A stretch of 32,000 bases of DNA from Erysipelothrix larvae (GCF_001545095.1 NZ_CP013213.1:780001-812000), one strand, 5' to 3'. Shown: positions 6,534-17,341, counted from the stretch's first letter. Notes: a model not told the origin generated them from the letters alone. Numbers and translations: made by a program.

Positions 6534-6593
6534 TTTTTATAACTTCAGAAGTGTGTGATAATGCTTTTGGAGGTGAAAGAGGTGATATCACAA

Positions 6594-8042
6594 ATGAGCA
6601 AATATTCAATTATCACATTAAAAAAGAAAGGATGGTCCAACAGAAAGATTGCCCTTGAATTGGGTATAGACCGAAAGACGGTCGCACGGTATCTTCAGGA
6701 ATATAATAAATGTCAAATACAATTGATTGATAATCATGATTTATCAGACGAAAGAAAAGTAGAAGTCATTGATCAAATTGTTGGGGACCGTCACTATGAT
6801 GCAAGCAAACGAGGTAAGCGCAAGTTAACGCAAGAAATTCAAGCACGCATCATTGAAATTATGGATTCAGAAAAAGATAAAGATATGTTACTAGGAAGAC
6901 ATCATAAGCAAAAGTTAACAGTCACTCAAATTTTTGAAATTATCAAAAGCGAGGGACATGATATTGGTCAGACAACCATACGAAATTTTGTGCATGAAAT
7001 TCAAGCTTCACGAGAAACATTTATTCGACAAGATTATCGATATGGTGAGCGGTTAGAGTTTGACTTTGGAGAAGTAAAGCTTTTAATTAATGGTGAACCA
7101 AGAACATATTATCTCGCTGTTTTCTCATCACCAGCAAGCGGATATCGGTATGCATATTTATATCCAAACCAACGCAAACAAGTATTCATAGATGCACATG
7201 TTCGCTTCTTTGAGCATTCTAAAGGCTCTTGGGGTGAAGTTGTATATGACAATATGAGAAACGTCGTGAAGCGCTTTATAACGCCTTATGAAAAAGAAAT
7301 TAATGATGATTGCCTCAAACTGGCACTCTATTATAATTTTGAAATTAACCTGACTAATATACGAAGTGGTCATGAAAAAGGAAGTGTAGAAAACAGTGTT
7401 AAGGTAATTCGAAATCGTGTATTCGCAAAGGACTATAAGTTTGAAACATTTGAAGAGGCATGTGTTCATCTTGAACAGACTCTTGATGAAATCAATATAA
7501 AGAGTTCAATCGAAGATGAAAAGAAAGAACTTCAACCTTACAGAATTCCTTATGAATTCGCTGATATCGAAGTATATAGTGTTGACAAGTATGGTTGTAT
7601 ACACGTTGAAAATAATTTTTATTCAGTCCCAGACTATCTCCAACACAAAAGAGTTACGGTCAAAAACACCGTAAATTCGATACGCATCTATTCAAATCAC
7701 ACATTTGTGTACGAACATAAAAAGATAGATGGTCATCATCAATATCAGCTTGTGTTGGACCACTATCTGAATACAATGATGACTAAGCCGGGATCTGTAA
7801 AGAATTCACTTGTCCTAAAACAACATCCTGAGCTTTATAACATCTACCATAATCATTATAAAACAAGAACTAAAGAGTTCATAGAAATTCTTCAAGAAAA
7901 CAGGAATGAAACGTATAAAACGCTCAAAGATGCTTTAAAGTATCGGTTGGTTTCAAATACAATTGACACCGTTGAGTATGATGACAGCATACAAGAACAA
8001 TCACGTAAACAACTTAAGAAAATAAGCCAATTAATGCACTAG
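6594..8042 (+). CDS. istA: IS21-family transposase IstA
   Basis: The ORF track gives 6555-8042. The ATG at 6594 is preceded by GGAGGTGAAAGAGGTGA. N-terminal HTH GWSNRKIALELGIDRKTVARYL. About 480 aa, immediately followed by istB, which is the canonical IS21 layout. Confidence 0.88.
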   Translation: MSKYSIITLKKKGWSNRKIALELGIDRKTVARYLQEYNKCQIQLIDNHDLSDERKVEVIDQIVGDRHYDASKRGKRKLTQEIQARIIEIMDSEKDKDMLLGRHHKQKLTVTQIFEIIKSEGHDIGQTTIRNFVHEIQASRETFIRQDYRYGERLEFDFGEVKLLINGEPRTYYLAVFSSPASGYRYAYLYPNQRKQVFIDAHVRFFEHSKGSWGEVVYDNMRNVVKRFITPYEKEINDDCLKLALYYNFEINLTNIRSGHEKGSVENSVKVIRNRVFAKDYKFETFEEACVHLEQTLDEINIKSSIEDEKKELQPYRIPYEFADIEVYSVDKYGCIHVENNFYSVPDYLQHKRVTVKNTVNSIRIYSNHTFVYEHKKIDGHHQYQLVLDHYLNTMMTKPGSVKNSLVLKQHPELYNIYHNHYKTRTKEFIEILQENRNETYKTLKDALKYRLVSNTIDTVEYDDSIQEQSRKQLKKISQLMH

Positions 8043-8053
8043 GAGATAAATTA

Positions 8054-8800
8054 ATGGAAACAATTGAACAATTGTCAAAAGAATTAAAACTTTCATTCAT
8101 AAAAACACACTATGAAGCAGCAATACAGGAAGCGAAACACAAAGGATTGGATTTTCAAGAATTTCTTAACGAACTGCTTTATTGCGAACGAAACAATCGT
8201 CGTGACAACGGAATAAAACAACGCATTCGTGCTGCTCGATTTCCTCAAAACAAGACATTGGAGGATTTTACGACTGTAAAATTTAATTCAGAATTAAAAC
8301 GAAAGTTTAAAGAACTGGAAACATTGAACTTTATAGAAAATAAAGAAAACATTATCTTAATGAGTAATCCTGGAATGGGAAAAACACATTATGCGACCGC
8401 ACTTGGAATCAAAGCTTGTCTAGAAAATAAAAAAGTGCTATTTATCAGCGTTCCTAATCTAATTATAGAGTTAAAAGAAGCTATGTCAAAAAATCAAATT
8501 ACGCAATACAAAAAGAAGTTTGAAAAATTTGATCTAGTAATTCTTGATGAACTCGGCTATGTATCATTTGATAAAGAAGGAAGTGAAATTCTATTCAATC
8601 TAATCTCAAATAGAATAACAGTGGGCTCTATGATTATTACAACAAATTTAATGTTCGATAGATGGGAAGAAATATTCAAAGACCCCATTCTAACAACTGC
8701 TCTAGTCGACCGCTTAACCTATAAATCACATCTATTAAATATGAGTGGAGAGAGTTATCGTGTTGAAGAAACAATTGCTTGGCTAAAGAGCAAAGAATGA
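8054..8800 (+). CDS. istB: IS21-family helper ATPase IstB
   Basis: 248 aa with Walker A NPGMGKTHYA and Walker B LVILDELGY (DnaC/IstB-like AAA+). Starts 12 nt after the istA stop, with SD AGGAG. Confidence 0.9.
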   Translation: METIEQLSKELKLSFIKTHYEAAIQEAKHKGLDFQEFLNELLYCERNNRRDNGIKQRIRAARFPQNKTLEDFTTVKFNSELKRKFKELETLNFIENKENIILMSNPGMGKTHYATALGIKACLENKKVLFISVPNLIIELKEAMSKNQITQYKKKFEKFDLVILDELGYVSFDKEGSEILFNLISNRITVGSMIITTNLMFDRWEEIFKDPILTTALVDRLTYKSHLLNMSGESYRVEETIAWLKSKE

Positions 8801-8807
8801 CAAACGG

Positions 8808-8860
8808 TAGTGGACCAGTTTTCAATTGAGATTTGGACCATTATTCAGTTGACAAATACA
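8808..8860 (-). repeat. IS21 right terminal inverted repeat (IRR)
   Basis: The reverse complement reads TGTATTTGTCAACTGAATAATGGTCCAAATCTCAATTGAAAACTGGTCCACTA, matching IRL at 45 of 53 positions. Confidence 0.85.
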
Positions 8861-9095
8861 ATAGACAGGCTACATTTTCATTGTGCTGTAATTTGTGTGT
8901 CTGCATGTTCTCACCTTAACTTTCTTTTGTAACACAGACACTACCACAGTTCTCTTAACATATCTATCAGAACATGACTTAATAACACAAGAGAATGATT
9001 CAGCATGAAAAAAGTACTGAATCACTCAATCTGTTATCAAATCAAATATTAGAAAACATTTGATTATTAAAATTTTAATTTTGGTTAATTCGAAT

Positions 9096-9335
9096 CTACG
9101 AAGGAATCATCTTCGTAGCACTATTAGGCACAGTTTGGATTCGCTGCTTCGCTAGAGTCTCACCATTCCCAATCAAGGAAACACTTACTTGGCTTGCGAC
9201 GGTCTTATCACGCTCGAACGTCCATAAGTGGCGTATAATTATCACTATCACAGTCACCGCAAGATAGGGTATCAAACCTATTTCATCATCCAGTTTCATC
9301 GCTCTCTAGTTTTCTTAAGGTCATGGCGCACTAAT
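9096..9335 (-). other. GC-richer, hairpin-rich block of unknown nature (candidate structured ncRNA or small-protein gene)
   Basis: Visibly higher G+C than the AT-rich flanks. Perfect 8-bp hairpin CTACGAAG-N7-CTTCGTAG at 9096-9118. Possible long-range pairing CTAGAG/CTCTAG. Only a 67-aa ORF (9096-9299) with a weak SD overlaps it. Strand assignment is tentative. Confidence 0.25.
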
Positions 9336-9505
9336 GAAGGTTGCTTGTGTGATAGATAAAGTCACTAATAATGGCTATACAATTTTCAAAGAACATCCCA
9401 CATTTTTATGTGAGAAGAGGAGGATTAAAATCAACCCCTCTATAGTGATAAGGAATCTCAGAGCGTTTTGAGCACCTTTTTTGCTAAATTTCTAAAAACT
9501 TTTTT

Positions 9506-9898
9506 TTATTTGAGCAACATTGAGCGATGTCTTTTGCTTATAGTGGTCTGACTCATATTCTTTGTTTTTGCATACTCGCGATCACTTAAATCGTGGTAGT
9601 ATATCGCAATGAGTAAATCTTTTTCATCATCGGTAAGGGTGTTAATTGCTTTATAAAGTGCTTCGTATCGTTCCATTTTAAGTGCCTCGTTTCTTGTGGG
9701 GTCTAAATCTTCTAATAGTTTTATTTCAAGTGTGTTACTTTCGTACTCATCAAAAAGATGGTCTAGGTAAACCCAGGTGTTGCGGATTTGTTTGGTAAGA
9801 TAGCGTTCATGTTCAATGCTTTTCCAATATTCTCTATAAACTTCTTCGCTAACGTTAACTGCTTGGTTTATAATGTAGATCACATATGTATCATTCAT
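9506..9898 (-). CDS. Sigma-70 region-4-type HTH protein, Tn916 Orf7-like conjugative-element regulator
   Basis: 130 aa. The C-terminal segment LTDDEKDLLIAIYYHDLSDREYAKTKNMSQTTISKRHRSMLLK is a sigma region-4 HTH. SD AGGAGG lies before the ATG at 9898. It has the same orientation as xis-int, as in Tn916-type regulation modules. Confidence 0.6.
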   Translation of the reverse strand: MNDTYVIYIINQAVNVSEEVYREYWKSIEHERYLTKQIRNTWVYLDHLFDEYESNTLEIKLLEDLDPTRNEALKMERYEALYKAINTLTDDEKDLLIAIYYHDLSDREYAKTKNMSQTTISKRHRSMLLK

Positions 9899-10471
9899 AT
9901 TGATATTCCTCCTGTTTCTGTAATCTGTATTTGATTTGAAACAGGGTGGTGCTCTAACATTTAGAATGCAAAAAAAACTCCTTTAAACCCTGGAGGCAAC
10001 TATAAAGAACATTTAATTGTTATGAGTGGCCTTCAAGTATAATAGCCCAAAGTGTCATATATTCAAATGAACTTTGCTTAAATGGAAACTCCGTACCGTT
10101 TATCATAAATCTGATTATAATCCACGAATGATTTCAAGTAACTGATAAATGTTAAAGTTGCTTCTAGCTTGATTAAACAGTTACTATAAGCTATATATAT
10201 AGAATTAGGTAGCAATATTTTTATGAAAGACTCCGTATACAAGCAAAGCCTATTAAAAGGTTTAGTAATTGTACAACGAATTTCTTAGACACCATTTTGT
10301 CAAACGAATACTAATTTAATAAAAATGTTCGTTATTACTCCTTTGTGCTTTAAACAATGTATTAATGGTCAAATTAAGCAGCATAAATTTAAATGCTATC
10401 TTATATCACAAAGAATTCTTGCTGTAGAATTTACAATTTAATCAATTAAAAATCAACTTATTCGTAATTTG

Positions 10472-10499
10472 TTGAGATTAGATGCTTGAAACTTATAAT
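10472..10499 (+). promoter_or_regulatory. Candidate promoter of the bacteriocin-like operon
   Basis: TTGAGA (10472-10477), a 16-nt spacer, then TATAAT (10494-10499), about 40 nt upstream of the ATG at 10540. Confidence 0.45.
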
Positions 10500-10539
10500 A
10501 GAATCAAGGTTGACATGTGTAATAAAAATAGGATGAGTA

Positions 10540-11001
10540 ATGAAAAAATTATACAAAATTGTGGTAACAAGCGTATTGCTAGCAACGTTTACTTTAAATG
10601 TAAGTGCCGTAATGCTAAAACAATATACAAGCACCACATACGTGGAAAGCACTCATCCGAATATATGGGAATATGTAGGAAATGTTTCCGTTAAGGGTGC
10701 AGATTGGATTCGTATCGATGAAAACAACTGGGCATATCCAAGTTTTAGTCGGATTACCTATCAAGCTCCGAATTTTTTAGGAGGGACATTATCAGGGTAT
10801 TCAAATCACCCTAAAACAGTATATTCAACAGGGAAAAACGATGGTACACAACGTAAGGCAAGTATAACCGTAAAGGATTCTCTTAATCCGATAAATGGTA
10901 AAACTAAAGCACTTTGGAATATTAATCTTATTAACCGTGGAGTGCAGCCGGGTGATCCCAAACCTTGGAGCGTTGAAACCAAATTAACTGGATTAGAATA
11001 G
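10540..11001 (+). CDS. Secreted 153-aa protein, lactococcin-972-like bacteriocin candidate (enlarged)
   Basis: Sec signal peptide MKKLYKIVVTSVLLATFTLNVSA. The mature part contains W-EYVG and GYSNHPKTVYSTGKNDGTQRKASITV. From memory these resemble the Lcn972 mature motifs TWQHGYG and YSNYHHGSKTHSATV...GKDTQRAG. It is followed by DUF1430-type membrane proteins plus an ABC ATPase, which is the canonical Lcn972 locus architecture. Confidence 0.55.
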   Translation: MKKLYKIVVTSVLLATFTLNVSAVMLKQYTSTTYVESTHPNIWEYVGNVSVKGADWIRIDENNWAYPSFSRITYQAPNFLGGTLSGYSNHPKTVYSTGKNDGTQRKASITVKDSLNPINGKTKALWNINLINRGVQPGDPKPWSVETKLTGLE

Positions 11002-11060
11002 ACCTAAAAAAAGTATTTTAAAAGTGATTACACATGTCTTCCATTTATAGAGGTGATACT

Positions 11061-12080
11061 ATGAAAAAAATTAGATTATACGCAATGAGTACTACAAATT
11101 TATTAATTCTTCTAACACTTTTAATGATGCTAAGTTATGTGCATTTAAGTGCAAAAAGAGAGAAACTTCCATTTTTTATGACACCTAATTTTATTAAAGT
11201 AACCAATAATAGTGCTAACAATGTGCCAGTTAGACTTCTTGAAAAATATAACTCAGAAGAAGATATCACAATCATCAGTGCTTATGACGAGGAAGCCACA
11301 ATTGGTATTTATGATCCAAATATGAACTATGCTATGGGGAATACAGTGATTTTCTTTGGCCAAACACGTTATTTTTCATCAAGTGACTATTTGAATGCGA
11401 CGAAATCTGGAATTATAGTATCTGATAATCTAGCTTACGATATGGAACATTGTAAATTATCTAATAATGATCACATTGAAGATGTTATGTATTGTACAGA
11501 TTCAGAGAGTATGCTTTCAAATGATGGCAAGACACGACAAATTGTTAATTTATTTTCATTTGATAATCTCGGTGAATCCGTGTATCTAGATTATTATTCA
11601 GAATCTGGTAAAGGTGTTGTAAGTCAAATCGTTAGTGATCTTAAACAAAATGGATACCACGTTGATTCAAGCGACATTCCTAATGTTATTGAAGCACTAA
11701 TTCAGCCAAATAAAGGCTTGATTAGTGTCATTATGACTGGAAGTTTTGTTTTTTATATACTATATTACATTGTGTCATACTGGTATTTCTTCAATATGCG
11801 AAGGGAAGTTTCAATTCACTATTTACATGGGGGACAGTTTAAAAGTATGGCTCATCGCTTTGTAAAGCCACTGTTTTATATTTCAATATTACAGCTAACC
11901 GTTGCATATCTCTTTGCGAATTATCAACGAAGTTTTGGCTACTTAATTATGAGTAATGGATCATTACTGATTATTTCTATTTTCCACATCGTGCTAACAC
12001 TTTCCATTCATGTCATTGCTTACCAAAGAGTTTATACAAGCATTAAGAATAAGCGAGGTGATACTGATTATGTTAGATAA
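11061..12080 (+). CDS. FtsX/DUF1430-type integral membrane protein (bacteriocin-associated immunity/export permease, paralog 1)
   Basis: The ORF track gives 11034-12080. The ATG at 11061 follows SD AGAGGTGA. Topology is one N-terminal TM, a ~190-aa extracytoplasmic domain, then three C-terminal TMs. The motif NMRREVSIHYLHGGQFKSM sits after TM2, as in MacB/FtsX-type permeases. Confidence 0.7.
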   Translation: MKKIRLYAMSTTNLLILLTLLMMLSYVHLSAKREKLPFFMTPNFIKVTNNSANNVPVRLLEKYNSEEDITIISAYDEEATIGIYDPNMNYAMGNTVIFFGQTRYFSSSDYLNATKSGIIVSDNLAYDMEHCKLSNNDHIEDVMYCTDSESMLSNDGKTRQIVNLFSFDNLGESVYLDYYSESGKGVVSQIVSDLKQNGYHVDSSDIPNVIEALIQPNKGLISVIMTGSFVFYILYYIVSYWYFFNMRREVSIHYLHGGQFKSMAHRFVKPLFYISILQLTVAYLFANYQRSFGYLIMSNGSLLIISIFHIVLTLSIHVIAYQRVYTSIKNKRGDTDYVR

Positions 12081-13155
12081 TATTCGATATGGACTTAGGG
12101 ATGTCTACAAAAATAAAATTTTCTTCATAATAACCGTCTTTTTCTTAGTTACACTTAATGTGGTTGCGGTAATAACCGCATATTCAATTCGCTATGACTA
12201 TTATGAAAGAGAACAAATTGAAACTCAAGAAGCCGTTAGATTTAAAGCTGTTCCTGTAGGCTATGATTTCAAGTATGATAAAAAAAATCTTGATAAGTAT
12301 ATGGAAATACTTAATCAAAATGCAATGACATATCGAATTTCATATACACTTTCTGAAGAAAATGATGCATTGGTTTTTCTTGTTTTTGGGGATCCATCTC
12401 TAATTAATGATGAAATTGAAAGTAGTTTGAATACTGATGAAGTAAAAGTTTACACATATGACGAAGCAGTTGATAAAGAAATTAAAGTTCTCGACGAGAC
12501 CTATCCGGTACATTTAATCAATTATGATAATCATAATTTGAGTATTTTTAATGATATAGGACGAGATTCTATATTAGTTGTCTATCAGGGACACAATGCA
12601 TATGAAGTTATAAATCTTCTTTTACAATCCGATTCAGGTACCTTTTATGAATTATTATCGCAAACAATTGTACGCCAGGATGATAGACAGCGTATTGATG
12701 CATTCATGGACTTTGTGAATACAAATATTAAAGAGTTTAAATTTATAAGTCCGTATATCATCGCGATGGATGACTATGTTTCATCAAATCATGTCTTTAT
12801 TCGTCATTATCTCATACCCTTGTATATTATTATGTTTTTCATGGGTGTCTTTTCATTCCAAGTAATTTTTAAAGGGCTTTTGAATAAGATGCAAAGAGAA
12901 TTCACGATTCATGTCCTTCATGGTGCAAAGTTTCGCGATATCTTGATACGGCAACTGGTGTTCTATTTGTCGATGATGATAACTGCGGTAGTTTTGGCTG
13001 GAATCTTTGTGTTTCCAATTGGAAGACAAGAACCATTGATTGTTCTCTCTGTATTGATTACAAGTGGATTGATTCTGCTGATGAGTATCATTTATATCTA
13101 TATTGCATTGAAAAGAACAAATTTATTTGAGAACTTGAGAGGAGATCATGTATGA
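12070..13155 (+). CDS. FtsX/DUF1430-type integral membrane protein (paralog 2)
   Basis: The ORF track gives 12010-13155. The ATG at 12070 follows SD GAGGTGA and overlaps the paralog-1 stop by 11 nt. Topology is the same 1+3 TM arrangement, with the matching motif NKMQREFTIHVLHGAKFRDI. Confidence 0.7.
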   Translation: MLDNIRYGLRDVYKNKIFFIITVFFLVTLNVVAVITAYSIRYDYYEREQIETQEAVRFKAVPVGYDFKYDKKNLDKYMEILNQNAMTYRISYTLSEENDALVFLVFGDPSLINDEIESSLNTDEVKVYTYDEAVDKEIKVLDETYPVHLINYDNHNLSIFNDIGRDSILVVYQGHNAYEVINLLLQSDSGTFYELLSQTIVRQDDRQRIDAFMDFVNTNIKEFKFISPYIIAMDDYVSSNHVFIRHYLIPLYIIMFFMGVFSFQVIFKGLLNKMQREFTIHVLHGAKFRDILIRQLVFYLSMMITAVVLAGIFVFPIGRQEPLIVLSVLITSGLILLMSIIYIYIALKRTNLFENLRGDHV

Positions 13156-13823
13156 TTTTAGAGTTGCGAAATGTTAACCGGATCTATGAGACCGATGGTT
13201 TACGAAAACAAGCATTGAAAGATATTACGATTAAGATAAGTTCTGGAGATCAGATTATGATTTTGGGTGCTTCAGGATCTGGAAAATCAACGTTATTGAA
13301 TATCATTGGGTTACTTGACAAAGGGTATGAGGGGCAGTACCTGATTGATGGTATCGAGAGAAAGACGTTAACAGAAAAAGAGCAAGCAACATTGAGAAGT
13401 CGTTTATTCGGATATGTATTTCAAGATTTTGTTTTAGTCGAAAATGAAACAATTTTTGAGAATGTCAGAATTCCATTAATTTATTCAACCATTGAGAAAA
13501 GTAAGCACAAAGCGATGATTGAAACGGCTCTAGAAGGCGTAGGTTTAGCGGGGATGAGTCGTAAACGTGTGAAGTATCTGTCAGGTGGTGAACGGCAACG
13601 TGTTGCGATTGCACGTGCGTTAGTAAATCAACCGAAGATTGTGATTGCGGATGAGCCTACAGGATCGTTAGATCAAATTACACGTGAACAAGTATTAGAT
13701 ATCATATACAATTACCTCGATGAGGATAAGATATTGCTTTTTGTTACCCATGATTTAGAGAATAATCGAAGAGGTGAACAAAAAATAATTGATATAAAAA
13801 ACGGTGAGTTATTTTTTGACTAA
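13152..13823 (+). CDS. ABC transporter ATP-binding protein (MacB/LolD-like)
   Basis: 223 aa with Walker A GASGSGKST, signature LSGGERQRVAIARAL and Walker B IVIADEPTGSLD. The start overlaps the upstream stop (ATGA). Confidence 0.92.
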   Translation: MILELRNVNRIYETDGLRKQALKDITIKISSGDQIMILGASGSGKSTLLNIIGLLDKGYEGQYLIDGIERKTLTEKEQATLRSRLFGYVFQDFVLVENETIFENVRIPLIYSTIEKSKHKAMIETALEGVGLAGMSRKRVKYLSGGERQRVAIARALVNQPKIVIADEPTGSLDQITREQVLDIIYNYLDEDKILLFVTHDLENNRRGEQKIIDIKNGELFFD

Positions 13824-13854
13824 GTCGAATGGTGTTGATATAAATTTGCAAAGT

Positions 13855-13882
13855 GAGAAAGCAATTTGCTTTCTTTTTTTTT
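13855..13882 (+). terminator. Rho-independent terminator after the ABC ATPase
   Basis: GAGAAAGCA / TGCTTTCTT stem with a 3-nt loop, followed by a T run of at least 8. Confidence 0.8.
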
Positions 13883-13990
13883 GAAATCAAGAGCCATGTT
13901 TAAGCATATTAGCAATTTTAAAATTAACTATTAAATATCTAAAAAATACTATTCTATGGTAATATGAAATAGTGATGGGAGGGGTAATCT

Positions 13991-14713
13991 GTGTTTAAAG
14001 TAGCACTCGTTGATGATAATCCAAGCATTCATAGTATTATTAGAAAACTATTGAATGATTCATTTGCGGTTCATAAATTTGAATTGAAGTCGTACTATTC
14101 TGCCGAAGATCTTTTAGAGGATTATTCTAATAGTCATTTTTCTTTTCTTTTATTAGATATAGAAATGCCTGAAACAAACGGAATAGAGCTGTCGGAGAAA
14201 CTGCAATTTCTGAATCACAAAATCCCCATAATCTTTTTGACGTCGTATGAACACTATATGAAAGATGCCTTTGGATTAAATGTCTATAGTTACATTTTGA
14301 AAGATAATATGATAGAAGAGCTACCCAGTGTTATAAGAAAACTTTTAGTTACTCTTGAAGTAATTGAAAATCGCATACAAGTATCGTTTAATACAGATAT
14401 GGGAAATATTAAGCTTTACGAGGAAGATATTGTATGTGTTTATTTTGAGGATAGGCGACCAACAATTTATACAAAAAAAATAAAGGTAAGGGTTTATGGA
14501 GAGGCTTTGTACTCTGTGTATGAAAAACTTTCGAGTGATATGTTTTTACAACCAAATAGTGGAATTATAGTAAATCTTAAGTATATAAAGACGATTCAAG
14601 ATATGATTATATATTTAAATTTTTTTCCTTTTCCGATAACTATTTCAAGAAGTAAAATTAGAGTCATAAAGAGTAAATATACAGAATTCTTGGCCAGAGG
14701 AGATTCACTTTGA
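13991..14713 (+). CDS. LytTR-family response regulator (AgrA-like)
   Basis: 240 aa with a GTG start after GGGAGGGG. Receiver domain: VALVDDNP and the phospho-acceptor context LLLDIEMPETNGIEL. The ~100-aa C-terminal domain is LytTR-type (...IVCVYFEDRRPTIYTKK...). Confidence 0.85.
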   Translation: MFKVALVDDNPSIHSIIRKLLNDSFAVHKFELKSYYSAEDLLEDYSNSHFSFLLLDIEMPETNGIELSEKLQFLNHKIPIIFLTSYEHYMKDAFGLNVYSYILKDNMIEELPSVIRKLLVTLEVIENRIQVSFNTDMGNIKLYEEDIVCVYFEDRRPTIYTKKIKVRVYGEALYSVYEKLSSDMFLQPNSGIIVNLKYIKTIQDMIIYLNFFPFPITISRSKIRVIKSKYTEFLARGDSL

Positions 14714-16005
14714 TTTTGCAAAATATAATACTCGTTATCATCGAGTTATTTTATTGTTCAATTGATGTAATGCTCTTGCATTATTTTTGTTCAATATTGA
14801 TGACAAAGAAAAAGAAAAATATGTTTGTTGAAATTTCTATCTATTGCATCGCTGTTATAGGAGTATTTTTGTTAACATATGGTACACTTTTTTCGAAAAG
14901 TGGCAATTTATTATCGTTTCTTATTATGCTGCTATATGCATATATAATATTTGAAAAAGCATCGAGTGGTGCATTTATTACGGTAAGTTTTTATTATATC
15001 TGCTCAGGAATTGTAACACTTCTTACTGCTTCAGTAGTACCGATGGTTTTTGATACATCTATTTCTAGTATAATGTCAAATCCGTTATTTCGATCATTAA
15101 TTGTCCTATTTACGAAACTATTGATACTTTTAATAGGGTTTTTCTGCCGTAATAAGTTTAGTCTATATTCAGACAATACAGTAAACTTGCGTGGCGTCCT
15201 GATATTCTTTGTCATCGTATTTGTCAATTTGACTTTTGTTTTTGAATTTGTGTATTTAAGTGAAGAAATTCCGTTGGAAAACCTAGTTTTAACTATGATC
15301 TTCACTTTTATAATCTTTATTGTATTAATTACGATATTAATGATGAAGTATATAGATGAAAAAGAGAAAACTATTAATCTTGAAATTAAACTTGAAGAAG
15401 CAAACCGGAAAAATGAAGAATACATAAAAATTGCGAGTGACCAAGTTGAAATTATGAGGGTAAAACATGATTTAAAAAATCATCTTGTTGTTTTAGATAG
15501 CTTCATTCAGCAAAACGGCATTGAAGATGCAAAAAAATATTTAGACAAACTTTTTGTTCATCCAGGGTTAAAATCATATGTAAATACTAAAAATATGATT
15601 ATAAATGCAGTAATGAATCAAAAAATTGCTGAATATCCAAATATTAGGTTCAAGGTAAGACACGACGATAATTTCTATAATATAAGTGATACTGCATTAA
15701 CGATTATTTTGGGTAATGCTCTTGATAACGCAATTGAGGCAGTTAAATTTATGAATAGTCCAGAAGTAAAAGTAGTTTTTAGTGAGAACGAAAACTATAT
15801 TAAGTTGTATATAGAAAATCCATTTAGTATACAACCAATAATTAGACGTGGAAAATTCATAACACAGAAGGATTCGAGATTTTCTGGTATCGGTATAAAT
15901 AATATATTACAGGCTTCAAAATCAGTAGGTGGTGAAGCGGTTTTTAAAGTTGAATCTAACGTATTCAAACTTGTTGTACTTGTGGATAAACATTTCAATC
16001 AATAA
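14710..16005 (+). CDS. AgrC-type (HPK10, GHKL) sensor histidine kinase
   Basis: 431 aa. The TTG start overlaps the response regulator stop and follows SD AGAGGAG. The N-terminal ~215 aa are polytopic (6-7 TM). H-box MRVKHDLKNHL, N-box LGNALDNAIEA, G-box SGIGINNIL. Confidence 0.85.
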   Translation: MILQNIILVIIELFYCSIDVMLLHYFCSILMTKKKKNMFVEISIYCIAVIGVFLLTYGTLFSKSGNLLSFLIMLLYAYIIFEKASSGAFITVSFYYICSGIVTLLTASVVPMVFDTSISSIMSNPLFRSLIVLFTKLLILLIGFFCRNKFSLYSDNTVNLRGVLIFFVIVFVNLTFVFEFVYLSEEIPLENLVLTMIFTFIIFIVLITILMMKYIDEKEKTINLEIKLEEANRKNEEYIKIASDQVEIMRVKHDLKNHLVVLDSFIQQNGIEDAKKYLDKLFVHPGLKSYVNTKNMIINAVMNQKIAEYPNIRFKVRHDDNFYNISDTALTIILGNALDNAIEAVKFMNSPEVKVVFSENENYIKLYIENPFSIQPIIRRGKFITQKDSRFSGIGINNILQASKSVGGEAVFKVESNVFKLVVLVDKHFNQ

Positions 16006-16073
16006 AAATGCAAAATAAACAAAATATATTTTAAAGTATGCTTTATATGGCTATGATAAAAGCGGTGATTAAT

Positions 16074-16622
16074 ATGGATTATATTACAAAAAAAATAAGC
16101 AATTGGCTTTTAAAAGAAAATTACATTACTGATGATCAAGCTGACGATATCATATATGCTTTAGAAATAGTTATTTCCAATATTCTTCCGTTTACCACCA
16201 TTTTGATTTTGGGAGTTGTATTTCAACAATTGACCAAGACTGTATTATTTTTTCTAGTTTTTGTTGGTTTTCGAATATTAAGAGATAGATATCATGCGCC
16301 AACTTTTTTAAAATGTTATATACTCACAGTTGGTTCGTTCATAAGTTGTTTAGTAATGTCACTTATCATTAATCTTGAGGTTCAACTCCTATTTACATTC
16401 TACATGGTAATTCTAAATATTCTACTATTCGTAGTCTTCAAAACAAAAATCGATGAAGGTCAAAATCAAAAATCTAATTTTATCTATAATTTTATATTAA
16501 TAACGTACAATTCTCTATGTTTAATATTGAGTAAATTTGTTTTACATGAGTACACTGTTTTTTTATCAGTTCTTGGACTAATTATTGTTTCAACGTCAAT
16601 TGCCAAAGAAAAATCAAATTAG
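16074..16622 (+). CDS. agrB: AgrB-family accessory gene regulator protein B (AIP-precursor processing peptidase)
   Basis: The ORF track gives 16038-16622; the ATG at 16074 is preferred. Polytopic membrane protein with the segment FRILRDRYHAPTFLKCYILTV. This carries the AgrB catalytic His and Cys exactly 7 residues apart (H74/C81 here; H77/C84 in S. aureus AgrB). Confidence 0.8.
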   Translation: MDYITKKISNWLLKENYITDDQADDIIYALEIVISNILPFTTILILGVVFQQLTKTVLFFLVFVGFRILRDRYHAPTFLKCYILTVGSFISCLVMSLIINLEVQLLFTFYMVILNILLFVVFKTKIDEGQNQKSNFIYNFILITYNSLCLILSKFVLHEYTVFLSVLGLIIVSTSIAKEKSN

Positions 16623-16879
16623 CAAATATAAAAATACAACTTATTCAATATTGAAACAGTTTATTCAAAATCATTTTACATAAAAGTAATTTTGGAAACT
16701 CTAAATAGATAAAGGAAAACTGGACTTGATGAAGATTATACATGTAAGTCGTTGACTCAATTTTGTATGAGAGAAAAGGACTGTTATATAGTCTTCTAAA
16801 CGGAGGGATTTAAAGTGTAGCTGTCTAGTAGTTGTTTAGAATTCCAAAGTTTGTATATAGTTTACGATGTTTGACAAAT

Positions 16880-16897
16880 GTAGCATGGAGTAGCAAA
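16880..16897 (+). repeat. GTAGCA(AA) direct repeats near attR (candidate arm-type integrase sites)
   Basis: GTAGCATG at 16880 and GTAGCAAA at 16890. They have the same orientation as the three copies at 5851-5880 and lie about 40 nt inside attR. Confidence 0.45.
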
Positions 16898-16935
16898 CCA
16901 CTCACAAACCCTTATATCTAGTACATTAGGAATTA

Positions 16936-17009
16936 TCAAAACGTTAATTTTTTATTACATGTTTTGTACTCAAGGCCCACTATCTAGTGGGTTTTTTGAT
17001 GTTTAGATA
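16936..17009 (+). repeat. attR: right copy of the island-bounding direct repeat
   Basis: See attL. Contains TCAAAACGTTAA (a pseudo-3' end of rpsI) plus a variant terminator hairpin. Confidence 0.85.
16972..16997 (+). terminator. Second copy of the rpsI-type terminator (attR copy)
   Basis: AAGGCCCAC / GTGGGTTTT stem (two G-U pairs) followed by a T run. No gene lies immediately upstream of it. Confidence 0.6.
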
Positions 17010-17278
17010 TCGTAGAAAAACAGCATAAAGTCCCCTTTAAGAAGCACCAAAGCAGTGGAATTAACCATCACAATGTGCCCAGTTGAATGAACATGAACAC
17101 TCAGTGAACCTAAGACAATTCAACTTCATCATTTTATCGAAAGTTTTTATATTAATTGTATATTCATGCATTTGATCGGCTATAAAATGTCGCTTTACAC
17201 ATATTGTCAAATAAAAACTGGCTAAAGATAAACACGTGTAACAATCCAAACAAATGCTTTAGGGTGTAGAATATGTAT

Positions 17279-17322
17279 AAAAAAAGACAACAAGCACGTT
17301 TTGATTTTGAGCTTGTTGTCTT
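17279..17322 (-). terminator. Rho-independent terminator of the PTS EIIC gene
   Basis: AAGACAACAAGC (17284-17295) pairs with GCTTGTTGTCTT (17311-17322). A 7-T run follows on the minus strand. It lies 20 nt downstream of the stop at 17342. Confidence 0.8.
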
Positions 17323-17341
17323 AATGGTTACACGTTTTATA

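Follow-up and report, generated by a model that had tools for sequence, protein, structure and literature searches.

A four-gene cassette of Erysipelothrix larvae pairing a secreted protein of an unannotated family with a candidate split lactococcin 972-type transporter

The window analysed here, a stretch of 32,000 nucleotides from the chromosome of Erysipelothrix larvae (GCF_001545095.1, NZ_CP013213.1:780001-812000), carries at positions 10540-13823 a predicted operon of four co-directional genes. These encode, in order, a secreted protein, two membrane proteins (memA and memB) and an ATP-binding cassette (ABC) ATPase. The operon is best explained as a secreted effector together with a dedicated type VII (MacB/FtsX-type) ABC transporter, in which the chassis of lactococcin 972 (Lcn972) loci would serve a cargo from an undescribed family. 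It is tentatively proposed, with a probability of about 0.45, that the cassette specifies a new Sec-secreted antibacterial protein and a split immunity transporter of the Lcn972 type. Three of the four proteins, all but the ATPase, belong to families for which neither a Pfam or NCBIfam model nor literature was found, and the annotation of the E. larvae chromosome lists these three as hypothetical. No paper citing the accessions of the secreted protein was found, and the literature found on DUF1430 and Lcn972 deals with canonical loci only.

A preliminary description of the region, made by a model from the sequence alone, had called it a locus of the Lcn972 type. This label suits the transporter and the gene order (Sec-dependent protein, membrane proteins, ATPase) but not the secreted protein. 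The outcome that this description had named as speaking against itself, namely the absence of significant matches together with an unrelated fold, agrees with what was observed for the secreted protein, for which Foldseek, the sole means of fold comparison, detected no relationship; for the transporter it was only half observed.

The transporter genes

The ATPase matches the Pfam model ABC_tran (PF00005) at 5e-33 and falls within the MacB/LolD/FtsE group, where the ATPases of Lcn972 loci are the closest subfamily with a name. The five top NCBIfam models are TIGR03608 (L_ocin_972_ABC, 209.3 bits), LolD (192.9), DarD (185), FtsE (183.7) and MacB (180.4), the first score lying below the model cutoff of 254.85 bits. 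Moreover, the protein is 35% identical to the ATPase of the Lcn972 locus of Lactococcus lactis pBL1 (E 6e-41). TIGR03608 was the best model in five out of five cassettes of the present type that were scanned, with a lead of only 3-17 bits over the next one. Scores in the four other cassettes range from 180.7 to 215.9 bits, against 253.4-277.5 bits for the ATPases of true Lcn972 loci.

According to Kyte-Doolittle hydropathy, a crude method and the sole basis of the topology given here, memA and memB have a first transmembrane segment (TM1), a large extracytoplasmic domain (~195 aa in memA, ~210 aa in memB) and then TM2-4. The same arrangement, with an extracytoplasmic stretch of ~195-210 aa, is found in 9/9 memA and 9/9 memB orthologues and corresponds to the FtsX/MacB-type (type VII) topology. 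The two proteins are paralogues (BLASTP E 7e-6; hhalign probability 94-95%, E 4e-8 to 1e-7 with 9-sequence profiles). Neither has a Pfam or NCBIfam match at E<=1.

Profile comparison relates both families to the DUF1430 protein of Lcn972 loci. With hhalign, the memA family aligns with the N-terminal half of that protein at 83.5% (E 8e-6) and with the C-terminal half at 80% (E 1.4e-5). The corresponding values for the memB family are 80% (E 1.4e-5) and 28-52% (E 1.4e-4 to 6e-4), and memA reaches up to 92% against DUF1430 proteins when 7-sequence profiles are used. These matches are in register from the closing part of the extracytoplasmic domain through TM2 and the R-x-E/K...G loop to TM3. Controls with reversed sequences stayed at or below 1.5%, and comparison of memA or memB with Escherichia coli LolC, LolE and MacB gave 0.2-3.9% and with E. 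coli FtsX 1.3-3.7%.

The preliminary description had predicted an FtsX/DUF1430 module in these proteins. Remote homology to the DUF1430 protein is what hhalign detects, but the thresholds of the corresponding Pfam models are not reached. For DUF1430 (PF07242, threshold 28.2 bits; controls: pBL1 78.3 bits, Streptococcus salivarius 71.8 bits), memA and memB stay below threshold, and the best match among the orthologues is L043_B, sub-threshold at 13.7 bits (E 0.077) and at the expected C-terminal position. For FtsX (PF02687), neither protein of the window has a match, and the orthologue L039_A has a sub-threshold one (20.7 bits, E 4.5e-4, residues 230-324). The N terminus of memB (MLDNIRYGLRDVYKNK plus TM1) resembles that of MacB/FtsX-type proteins and aligns in register with the permease 5xu1_M, without significance (E 3.2); the memA profile is likewise in register with MacB 5gko, but at E 0.7. 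DUF1430 and FtsX have been placed in one Pfam clan (PMC6588880). Taken together, these comparisons give moderate, not conclusive, support to the view that memA and memB are remote homologues of the DUF1430-type protein associated with Lcn972.

In the comparison set, which comprised the pBL1 locus and 30 further Lcn972 loci, all 16 membrane proteins taken from true Lcn972 loci (15 from a genome scan plus that of pBL1) are single open reading frames (ORFs) of 648-787 aa. This canonical protein is usually described as having seven transmembrane segments. About eight hydropathy peaks, arranged 4+4, are apparent in the proteins of pBL1 (L004, 3571-5517) and of L009-L037, and hhalign detects homology between the two halves of the protein (95%, E 4.5e-8). 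The canonical DUF1430 protein thus looks like a fused tandem of two modules of four transmembrane segments each, FtsX-like in appearance. The Pfam DUF1430 model spans only the last of these modules.

Since the canonical protein is internally duplicated in this 4+4 fashion, memA plus memB would be a sensible split equivalent of it. The replacement of the single protein by a split pair, as the preliminary description had it, is supported by both remote homology and architecture. Two genes for proteins of ~330-360 aa each occur in the window and in eight other lineages, one of them cut by a contig end, and it is natural to infer that their products would form a heterodimeric permease.

Two other departures from the single-gene arrangement were seen among the Lcn972 loci themselves. 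In S. salivarius pSsal-YU10 (L005, 4460-6431), a true locus of the Lcn972 type, the DUF1430 gene is annotated as two overlapping coding sequences (252 + 416 aa) that separate near the border between the two modules. This is probably a frameshift and not a functional split, since L012 and L013, which encode the identical bacteriocin, have a single 675-aa ORF. In a Leifsonia metagenome-assembled genome (MAG; L029, 4486-8209), as well as in L025 and L027, genes for a 223-aa putative lipoprotein and for a protein of 368 aa come after a clear Lcn972-family gene; next are an ABC ATPase gene and, separately, one for a 373-aa protein of FtsX-like topology. Since these actinobacterial loci have no DUF1430 match, the transporter partner of Lcn972-family proteins varies between phyla.

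The secreted protein and its family

The 153-aa product is identical to E. larvae AMC93089.1, annotated 'hypothetical protein'. Its signal peptide (about residues 1-23, positions 10540-10608) is of typical Sec type, with a K-rich n-region, a hydrophobic core and VSA before V24; the mature protein has ~130 aa, a pI of 9.3 and no cysteine. It belongs to an unannotated family of predicted all-beta proteins of ~115 aa. An exhaustive HMMER profile search of 1.84 billion representatives (E<=1e-3) returned 53 cluster representatives, four of which were rejected, leaving ~49 clusters. Nearly all of these relatives are signal-peptide proteins of 120-160 aa and of metagenomic origin. The rejected matches (P0017, P0039, P0040 and P0055) are repetitive eukaryotic proteins of 1173-3445 aa, three of them with leucine-rich-repeat matches and one with NACHT/CARD matches as well. 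They were left out of the family count as false positives, because their scores add up over many weak repeat stretches. Word-indexed searches retrieved six relatives of the secreted protein, two of memB and six of memA, all inside the families described here.

In a 52-sequence alignment of the secreted family, T33, H39, Y45, G47, G53, D55, Y74, D101, V111, D113 and T122 are nearly invariant. The AlphaFold2 model built on this alignment is all-beta, with seven strands (pLDDT 81.6, pTM 0.73); an earlier model from seven sequences (pLDDT 43.7) was unusable until the exhaustive search supplied the larger alignment. Foldseek comparison of the improved model with the PDB and with viral models gave nothing at E<=0.001, and the protein has no match in Pfam, NCBIfam, PADLOC or PHROGs. 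An origin in defence systems or phages was considered and set aside, PADLOC and PHROGs being blank for memA and memB as well; searches of viral contigs and plasmids for the cassette proteins found nothing.

A relationship to Lcn972 had been proposed in the preliminary description, which pointed to shared short motifs and to an insertion of ~45 aa. The Lcn972 sequence that it used is exact (2LGN). The resemblance is no better than chance, and there is no basis for an insertion into Lcn972. Profile comparisons stay at noise. The stretch FLGGTLSGYSN, which bears the supposed 'YSN.H' motif, is an insertion limited to the closest relatives of the window protein, and only the R of the supposed 'TQR' motif is conserved across the family. 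The Lcn972-family sequences collected share the core GGxWxYG ... SNY[YH]HGSKxH ... FYYN. These motifs are absent from the 52-sequence alignment, and the look-alike 'GYSNHPKT' of the window protein sits in the clade-specific insertion.

It could still be argued that the protein is a true, extremely diverged and enlarged Lcn972 member that binds lipid II, and that the locus is a bona fide one of the Lcn972 type. The transporter parts are indeed the closest known relatives of the Lcn972 apparatus, and both proteins are small, Sec-dependent, basic (pI 9.7 for Lcn972) and all-beta. Accepted members can also diverge widely, mediterrocin being 18% identical to Lcn972 (PMC12345188). Enlarged true members exist as well, since some Lcn972-family precursors of Streptomyces (L032, L033 and L038) have 129-164 aa, the conserved core being preceded by an N-terminal extension; the SNYYHGSK motif is retained in them, whereas the window protein lacks it.

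Divergent true members are, however, recognised by their family model, whereas the window protein has no match at E<=1 to Lactococcin_972 in Pfam (PF09683) or NCBIfam, and none of its 52 relatives matches PF09683 at E<=0.1; the pBL1 Lcn972 control matches at 8.7e-15. Comparison of the single protein, a 7-sequence profile and the 52-sequence profile with Lcn972 or with a 21-sequence alignment of its family gave hhalign probabilities of 0.1%, 0.15% and, for the 52-sequence profile against that alignment, 1.2% (local) and 2.3% (global). HMM searches in both directions between the two families did not exceed 7.4 bits, and the best match of an earlier HMM run was the signal peptide. Neither 2LGN nor 9HKJ, which represent the small beta-sandwich of Lcn972 in the PDB, is found within the top 50 Foldseek matches of the model. 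Membership of the secreted protein in the Lcn972 family was not detected, and a hidden membership seems quite unlikely.

Distribution and genomic setting of the cassette

Genomic context was examined in ten lineages. Identity of their secreted proteins to that of the window ranges from 25 to 95%. The complete cassette occurs in eight (window/L007/L047, L006, L001-3, L041-42, L043-44, L045, L051 and L052). With a ninth (L039/L040), in which the contig ends after the secreted-protein gene, memA and the start of the third gene, it is present in 9/10 lineages. The encoded proteins are of similar length throughout: ~110-130 aa for the mature secreted protein, ~330-345 and ~340-360 aa for the membrane proteins and ~220-228 aa for the ATPase. 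Identities across cassettes are 26-46% (secreted protein), 23-36% (membrane proteins) and 40-60% (ATPase). The flanks are mutually unrelated, and this conservation in unrelated contexts argues that the genes are real. The hosts that could be named comprise E. larvae, one MAG of Clostridiales and several of Oscillospiraceae; a metagenome scan added only three loci.

The four ORFs of the preliminary description are borne out (Table 1). Its choice of the shorter starts for memA and memB also proved correct, since a GAGGTGA ribosome-binding site precedes each of them (11061 and 12070). The 11-nt overlap of memA with memB and the 4-nt overlap of memB with the ATPase gene suggest translational coupling of the three. 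Together with the promoter-like site upstream and the one terminator after the ATPase gene, which is the sole terminator-like site across 9890-14050, these overlaps point to a single operon. The consensus match is all that marks out the promoter-like site, and the region has no more of these sites than expected from shuffled sequence, so its presumed role is read from its position. Rfam and tRNA scans of the whole window were empty.

Table 1. Positions of the cassette genes, putative expression signals and agr-like neighbours in the window
Feature	Position	Strand	Description
Secreted-protein gene	10540..11001	+	ORF, 153 aa
memA	11061..12080	+	ORF, 339 aa; membrane protein with four predicted transmembrane segments
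memB	12070..13155	+	ORF, 361 aa; paralogue of memA with four predicted transmembrane segments
ABC ATPase gene	13152..13823	+	ORF, 223 aa
Promoter-like site TTGAGA-16-TATAAT	10472..10499	+	Consensus match 11/12, ~40 nt 5' of first gene
Intrinsic terminator	13855..13885	+	9-bp stem then T run, 3' of ATPase gene
LytTR response regulator	13991-14713	+	Pfam Response_reg + LytTR
AgrC-like GHKL histidine kinase	14710-16005	+	Pfam HATPase_c_5
AgrB	16038-16622	+	Pfam AgrB

The cassette of the window lies in a stretch of low GC content (27-34%, against 35-42% on either side), bounded by rplM-rpsI with an IS21-type element and by a PTS EIIC gene. This stretch, about 8800-17300, holds a sigma-like gene, the cassette and agr-like genes, and looks like an acquired island. 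The IS21-type pair directly upstream (6555-8800) consists of an IstB-like ATPase and a transposase whose C-terminal domain is of the Mu-transposase type. Low GC content, the IS21-type element, the unrelated flanks of the cassettes and the integrase that adjoins one of them are consistent with an accessory module that moves horizontally. The sigma-like gene (9506-9898, - strand) is divergent, 640 nt upstream of the cassette, and encodes a 130-aa protein that is essentially sigma-70 region 4. Its best matches are to models of the sigma70-ECF type, as well as to phage sigma-factor families (PHROGs), which would suit a sigma factor that has been truncated, a regulator or the remnant of a mobile element.

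Downstream of the cassette stand genes for a LytTR response regulator, an AgrC-like kinase and AgrB. The same succession follows the cassette in L007, whose secreted protein is 95% identical to that of the window, and in the distant L051 (41%), where an identical gene order (9380-12324) is accompanied by a 49-aa AgrD-like ORF (MKMEGKK...PFCVGWFYQPKRP...). No AgrD was recognised in the window at 16560-17340, and tblastn with the AgrD-like peptide of L051 gave nothing. Perhaps the E. larvae system is an orphan receiver; alternatively, its peptide gene may lie elsewhere or have diverged too far. Agr-like LytTR systems commonly control bacteriocins and toxins, and, judging by adjacency, the module probably regulates the cassette. 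A search for LytTR-type repeats upstream of the cassette yielded one 13-nt pair with 28-nt spacing (10269 and 10297), which is not convincing.

Proposed function and comparison with known systems

In the proposed mechanism, the 153-aa precursor would be exported by the Sec pathway and cleaved to a basic all-beta protein of ~130 aa, which could act outside the cell as a bacteriocin-like antibacterial against related Gram-positive bacteria. MemA and memB would form a heterodimeric 4+4 permease, the split counterpart of the fused DUF1430 protein with its eight transmembrane segments, powered by two copies of the ATPase. Through ATP-driven mechanotransmission, the extracytoplasmic domains could clear the secreted protein from the envelope of the producer and so confer self-immunity. 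In E. larvae, expression would probably be linked to cell density via the adjacent agr-like system. This immunity role is modelled on that assigned to orf2-orf3 in the Lcn972 cluster: plasmids with lcn972-orf2-orf3 raise the minimal inhibitory concentration of Lcn972 from 12.5 to 800-1600 AU/ml (PMC4055356). We infer that the permease is heterodimeric, that the secreted protein is toxic, that the transporter gives immunity and that quorum sensing controls expression.

Several observations sit uneasily with a toxin and its immunity transporter. Neither the sequence nor the predicted fold of the secreted protein resembles that of a known bacteriocin or toxin. The protein is somewhat better conserved than the membrane proteins, which is not the obvious expectation for a toxin/immunity arms race, and pI values in its family are mixed (24/52 basic, 14/52 acidic). 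The homology to DUF1430 comes from shallow profiles (9 and 16 sequences), with probabilities below 90% at that depth, and most lineages have no agr-like neighbour. Finally, in the tenth lineage, L053 (6001-8814), the secreted-protein gene is followed by a gene for a 452-aa polytopic membrane protein, an alternative architecture. The memA profile matches this protein over its N-terminal transmembrane segment and external domain (E 2e-10); no ABC ATPase gene is present in the ~6 kb downstream.

Some of these points would also be accommodated if the secreted beta-sandwich were a non-toxic partner, an extracellular cofactor or carrier of a heterodimeric permease that extracts or remodels an envelope component, in the manner of LolA, which takes cargo from LolCDE, or of PcsB, CwlO and EnvC, which are driven by FtsEX. 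Conservation of the secreted protein fits such a partner, because a fixed protein-protein interface would predict it, and its gene is always the first of the cassette. The mixed pI values and the pairing of secreted protein and memA-like protein in L053 are equally compatible with it, as is an architecture like that of LolCDE, with two paralogous subunits of four transmembrane segments and one ATPase for which LolD is the second-best model. On the other hand, the top Foldseek matches include no LolA/LolB-like, hydrolase or coiled-coil fold, and no catalytic or cell-wall-binding domain was found by Pfam scan in any member of the secreted family. The membrane proteins match DUF1430 proteins and not LolC/E or FtsX. 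Erysipelothrix, Clostridiales and Oscillospiraceae are generally monoderm, so that no destination of the Lol type is expected, and a rare and patchy distribution (~49 clusters) in mobile contexts fits an accessory weapon better than envelope housekeeping. A non-toxic partner is accordingly regarded as unlikely, if worth keeping in mind.

A further reading holds that the cassette is a Lol-like extraction machine of monoderm Firmicutes and not a toxin/immunity system. Powered by ATP, the heterodimeric permease would pull a lipid, lipopeptide or lipoprotein from the bilayer in which it is embedded and hand it to the secreted beta-sandwich. This dedicated carrier would then release it extracellularly, where it could serve as a signal, surfactant or weapon. 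This is a decidedly speculative and improbable proposal. If it were true, the secreted family would constitute a new class of extracellular carriers, and Lcn972-type transporters may stem from such machines.

It is just as improbable that the cassette confers resistance to foreign antimicrobial peptides, or detoxifies them, as BceAB or YxdLM-YxeA do, and that the secreted protein assists by binding or sensing. Peptide resistance is often due to FtsX-type ABC transporters whose extracytoplasmic domains are large, a two-component system adjoins the cassette in the window, and in L053 the gene after that of the 452-aa protein belongs to the DUF1093 (YxeA) family. However, the neighbour in the window is of agr type and not of BceRS type, and it is missing from most lineages; the predicted permease is a 4+4 heterodimer and not of the BceB type with ten transmembrane segments. 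Moreover, a resistance module leaves unexplained the strict linkage to a conserved secreted protein encoded by the first gene.

If the secreted protein is indeed antibacterial, it would found a new family of Sec-dependent, unmodified protein bacteriocins in gut and fermenter Firmicutes, with ~49 sequence clusters ready for comparison. The cassette also indicates that the transporter of Lcn972 type is a portable chassis able to serve unrelated cargo, which bears on how such transporters recognise a cell-surface protein. To our knowledge, none of them has been characterised structurally. The two-gene split, together with the duplication of the canonical protein, could offer a tractable heterodimer for structural work, with extracytoplasmic domains that can be mutated separately. 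Genome mining keyed to PF09683 or PF07242 misses these loci; the profiles built here could find them.

Comparison with known systems sets the cassette apart from each of them in some respect. It shares with agr/LytTR-regulated bacteriocin or toxin loci the LytTR, AgrC-like kinase and AgrB genes directly downstream (window, L007 and L051), but the window lacks a recognisable AgrD and LytTR-type direct repeats upstream, and most lineages lack the linkage. The topology of four transmembrane segments is that of FtsEX, with its partners PcsB, CwlO and EnvC, and of MacB. As in their mechanotransmission, cytoplasmic ATP hydrolysis may move extracytoplasmic domains and, through them, act on a protein or substrate outside the cell, with nothing carried across the membrane. 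FtsX is, however, homodimeric, and its partners are coiled-coil hydrolases or activators, a type of domain not found in the window cassette. LolCDE/LolA of E. coli likewise combines two paralogous subunits bearing large extracytoplasmic domains, one ATPase gene and a signal-peptide all-beta protein linked to the transporter. It differs in the sequences of its membrane proteins (hhalign 0.2-3.9% for memA and memB against LolC/LolE/MacB) and in the fold of LolA, which is absent from the Foldseek matches; it is also essential housekeeping, whereas the window cassette is rare and mobile and its hosts generally monoderm.

The Lcn972 operon of L. lactis pBL1 and its relatives (that of mediterrocin in M. 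gnavus and the streptococcal loci L009-L030) differ from the window cassette in a mature secreted protein of 66 instead of 130 aa, with no sequence or fold relationship detected, and in one membrane gene (648-692 aa) instead of two (339 and 361 aa). The window proteins score below the PF07242 threshold and the TIGR03608 cutoff, and split cassettes are hosted by Erysipelotrichia and Clostridia, not by Lactobacillales or Actinobacteria. In spite of these differences, the gene order is the same, the ATPase is 35% identical to that of pBL1 with TIGR03608 as its best model, the membrane proteins are probably remote homologues, and both loci encode an unmodified secreted protein of small size, basic pI and all-beta structure, predicted in the case of the window.

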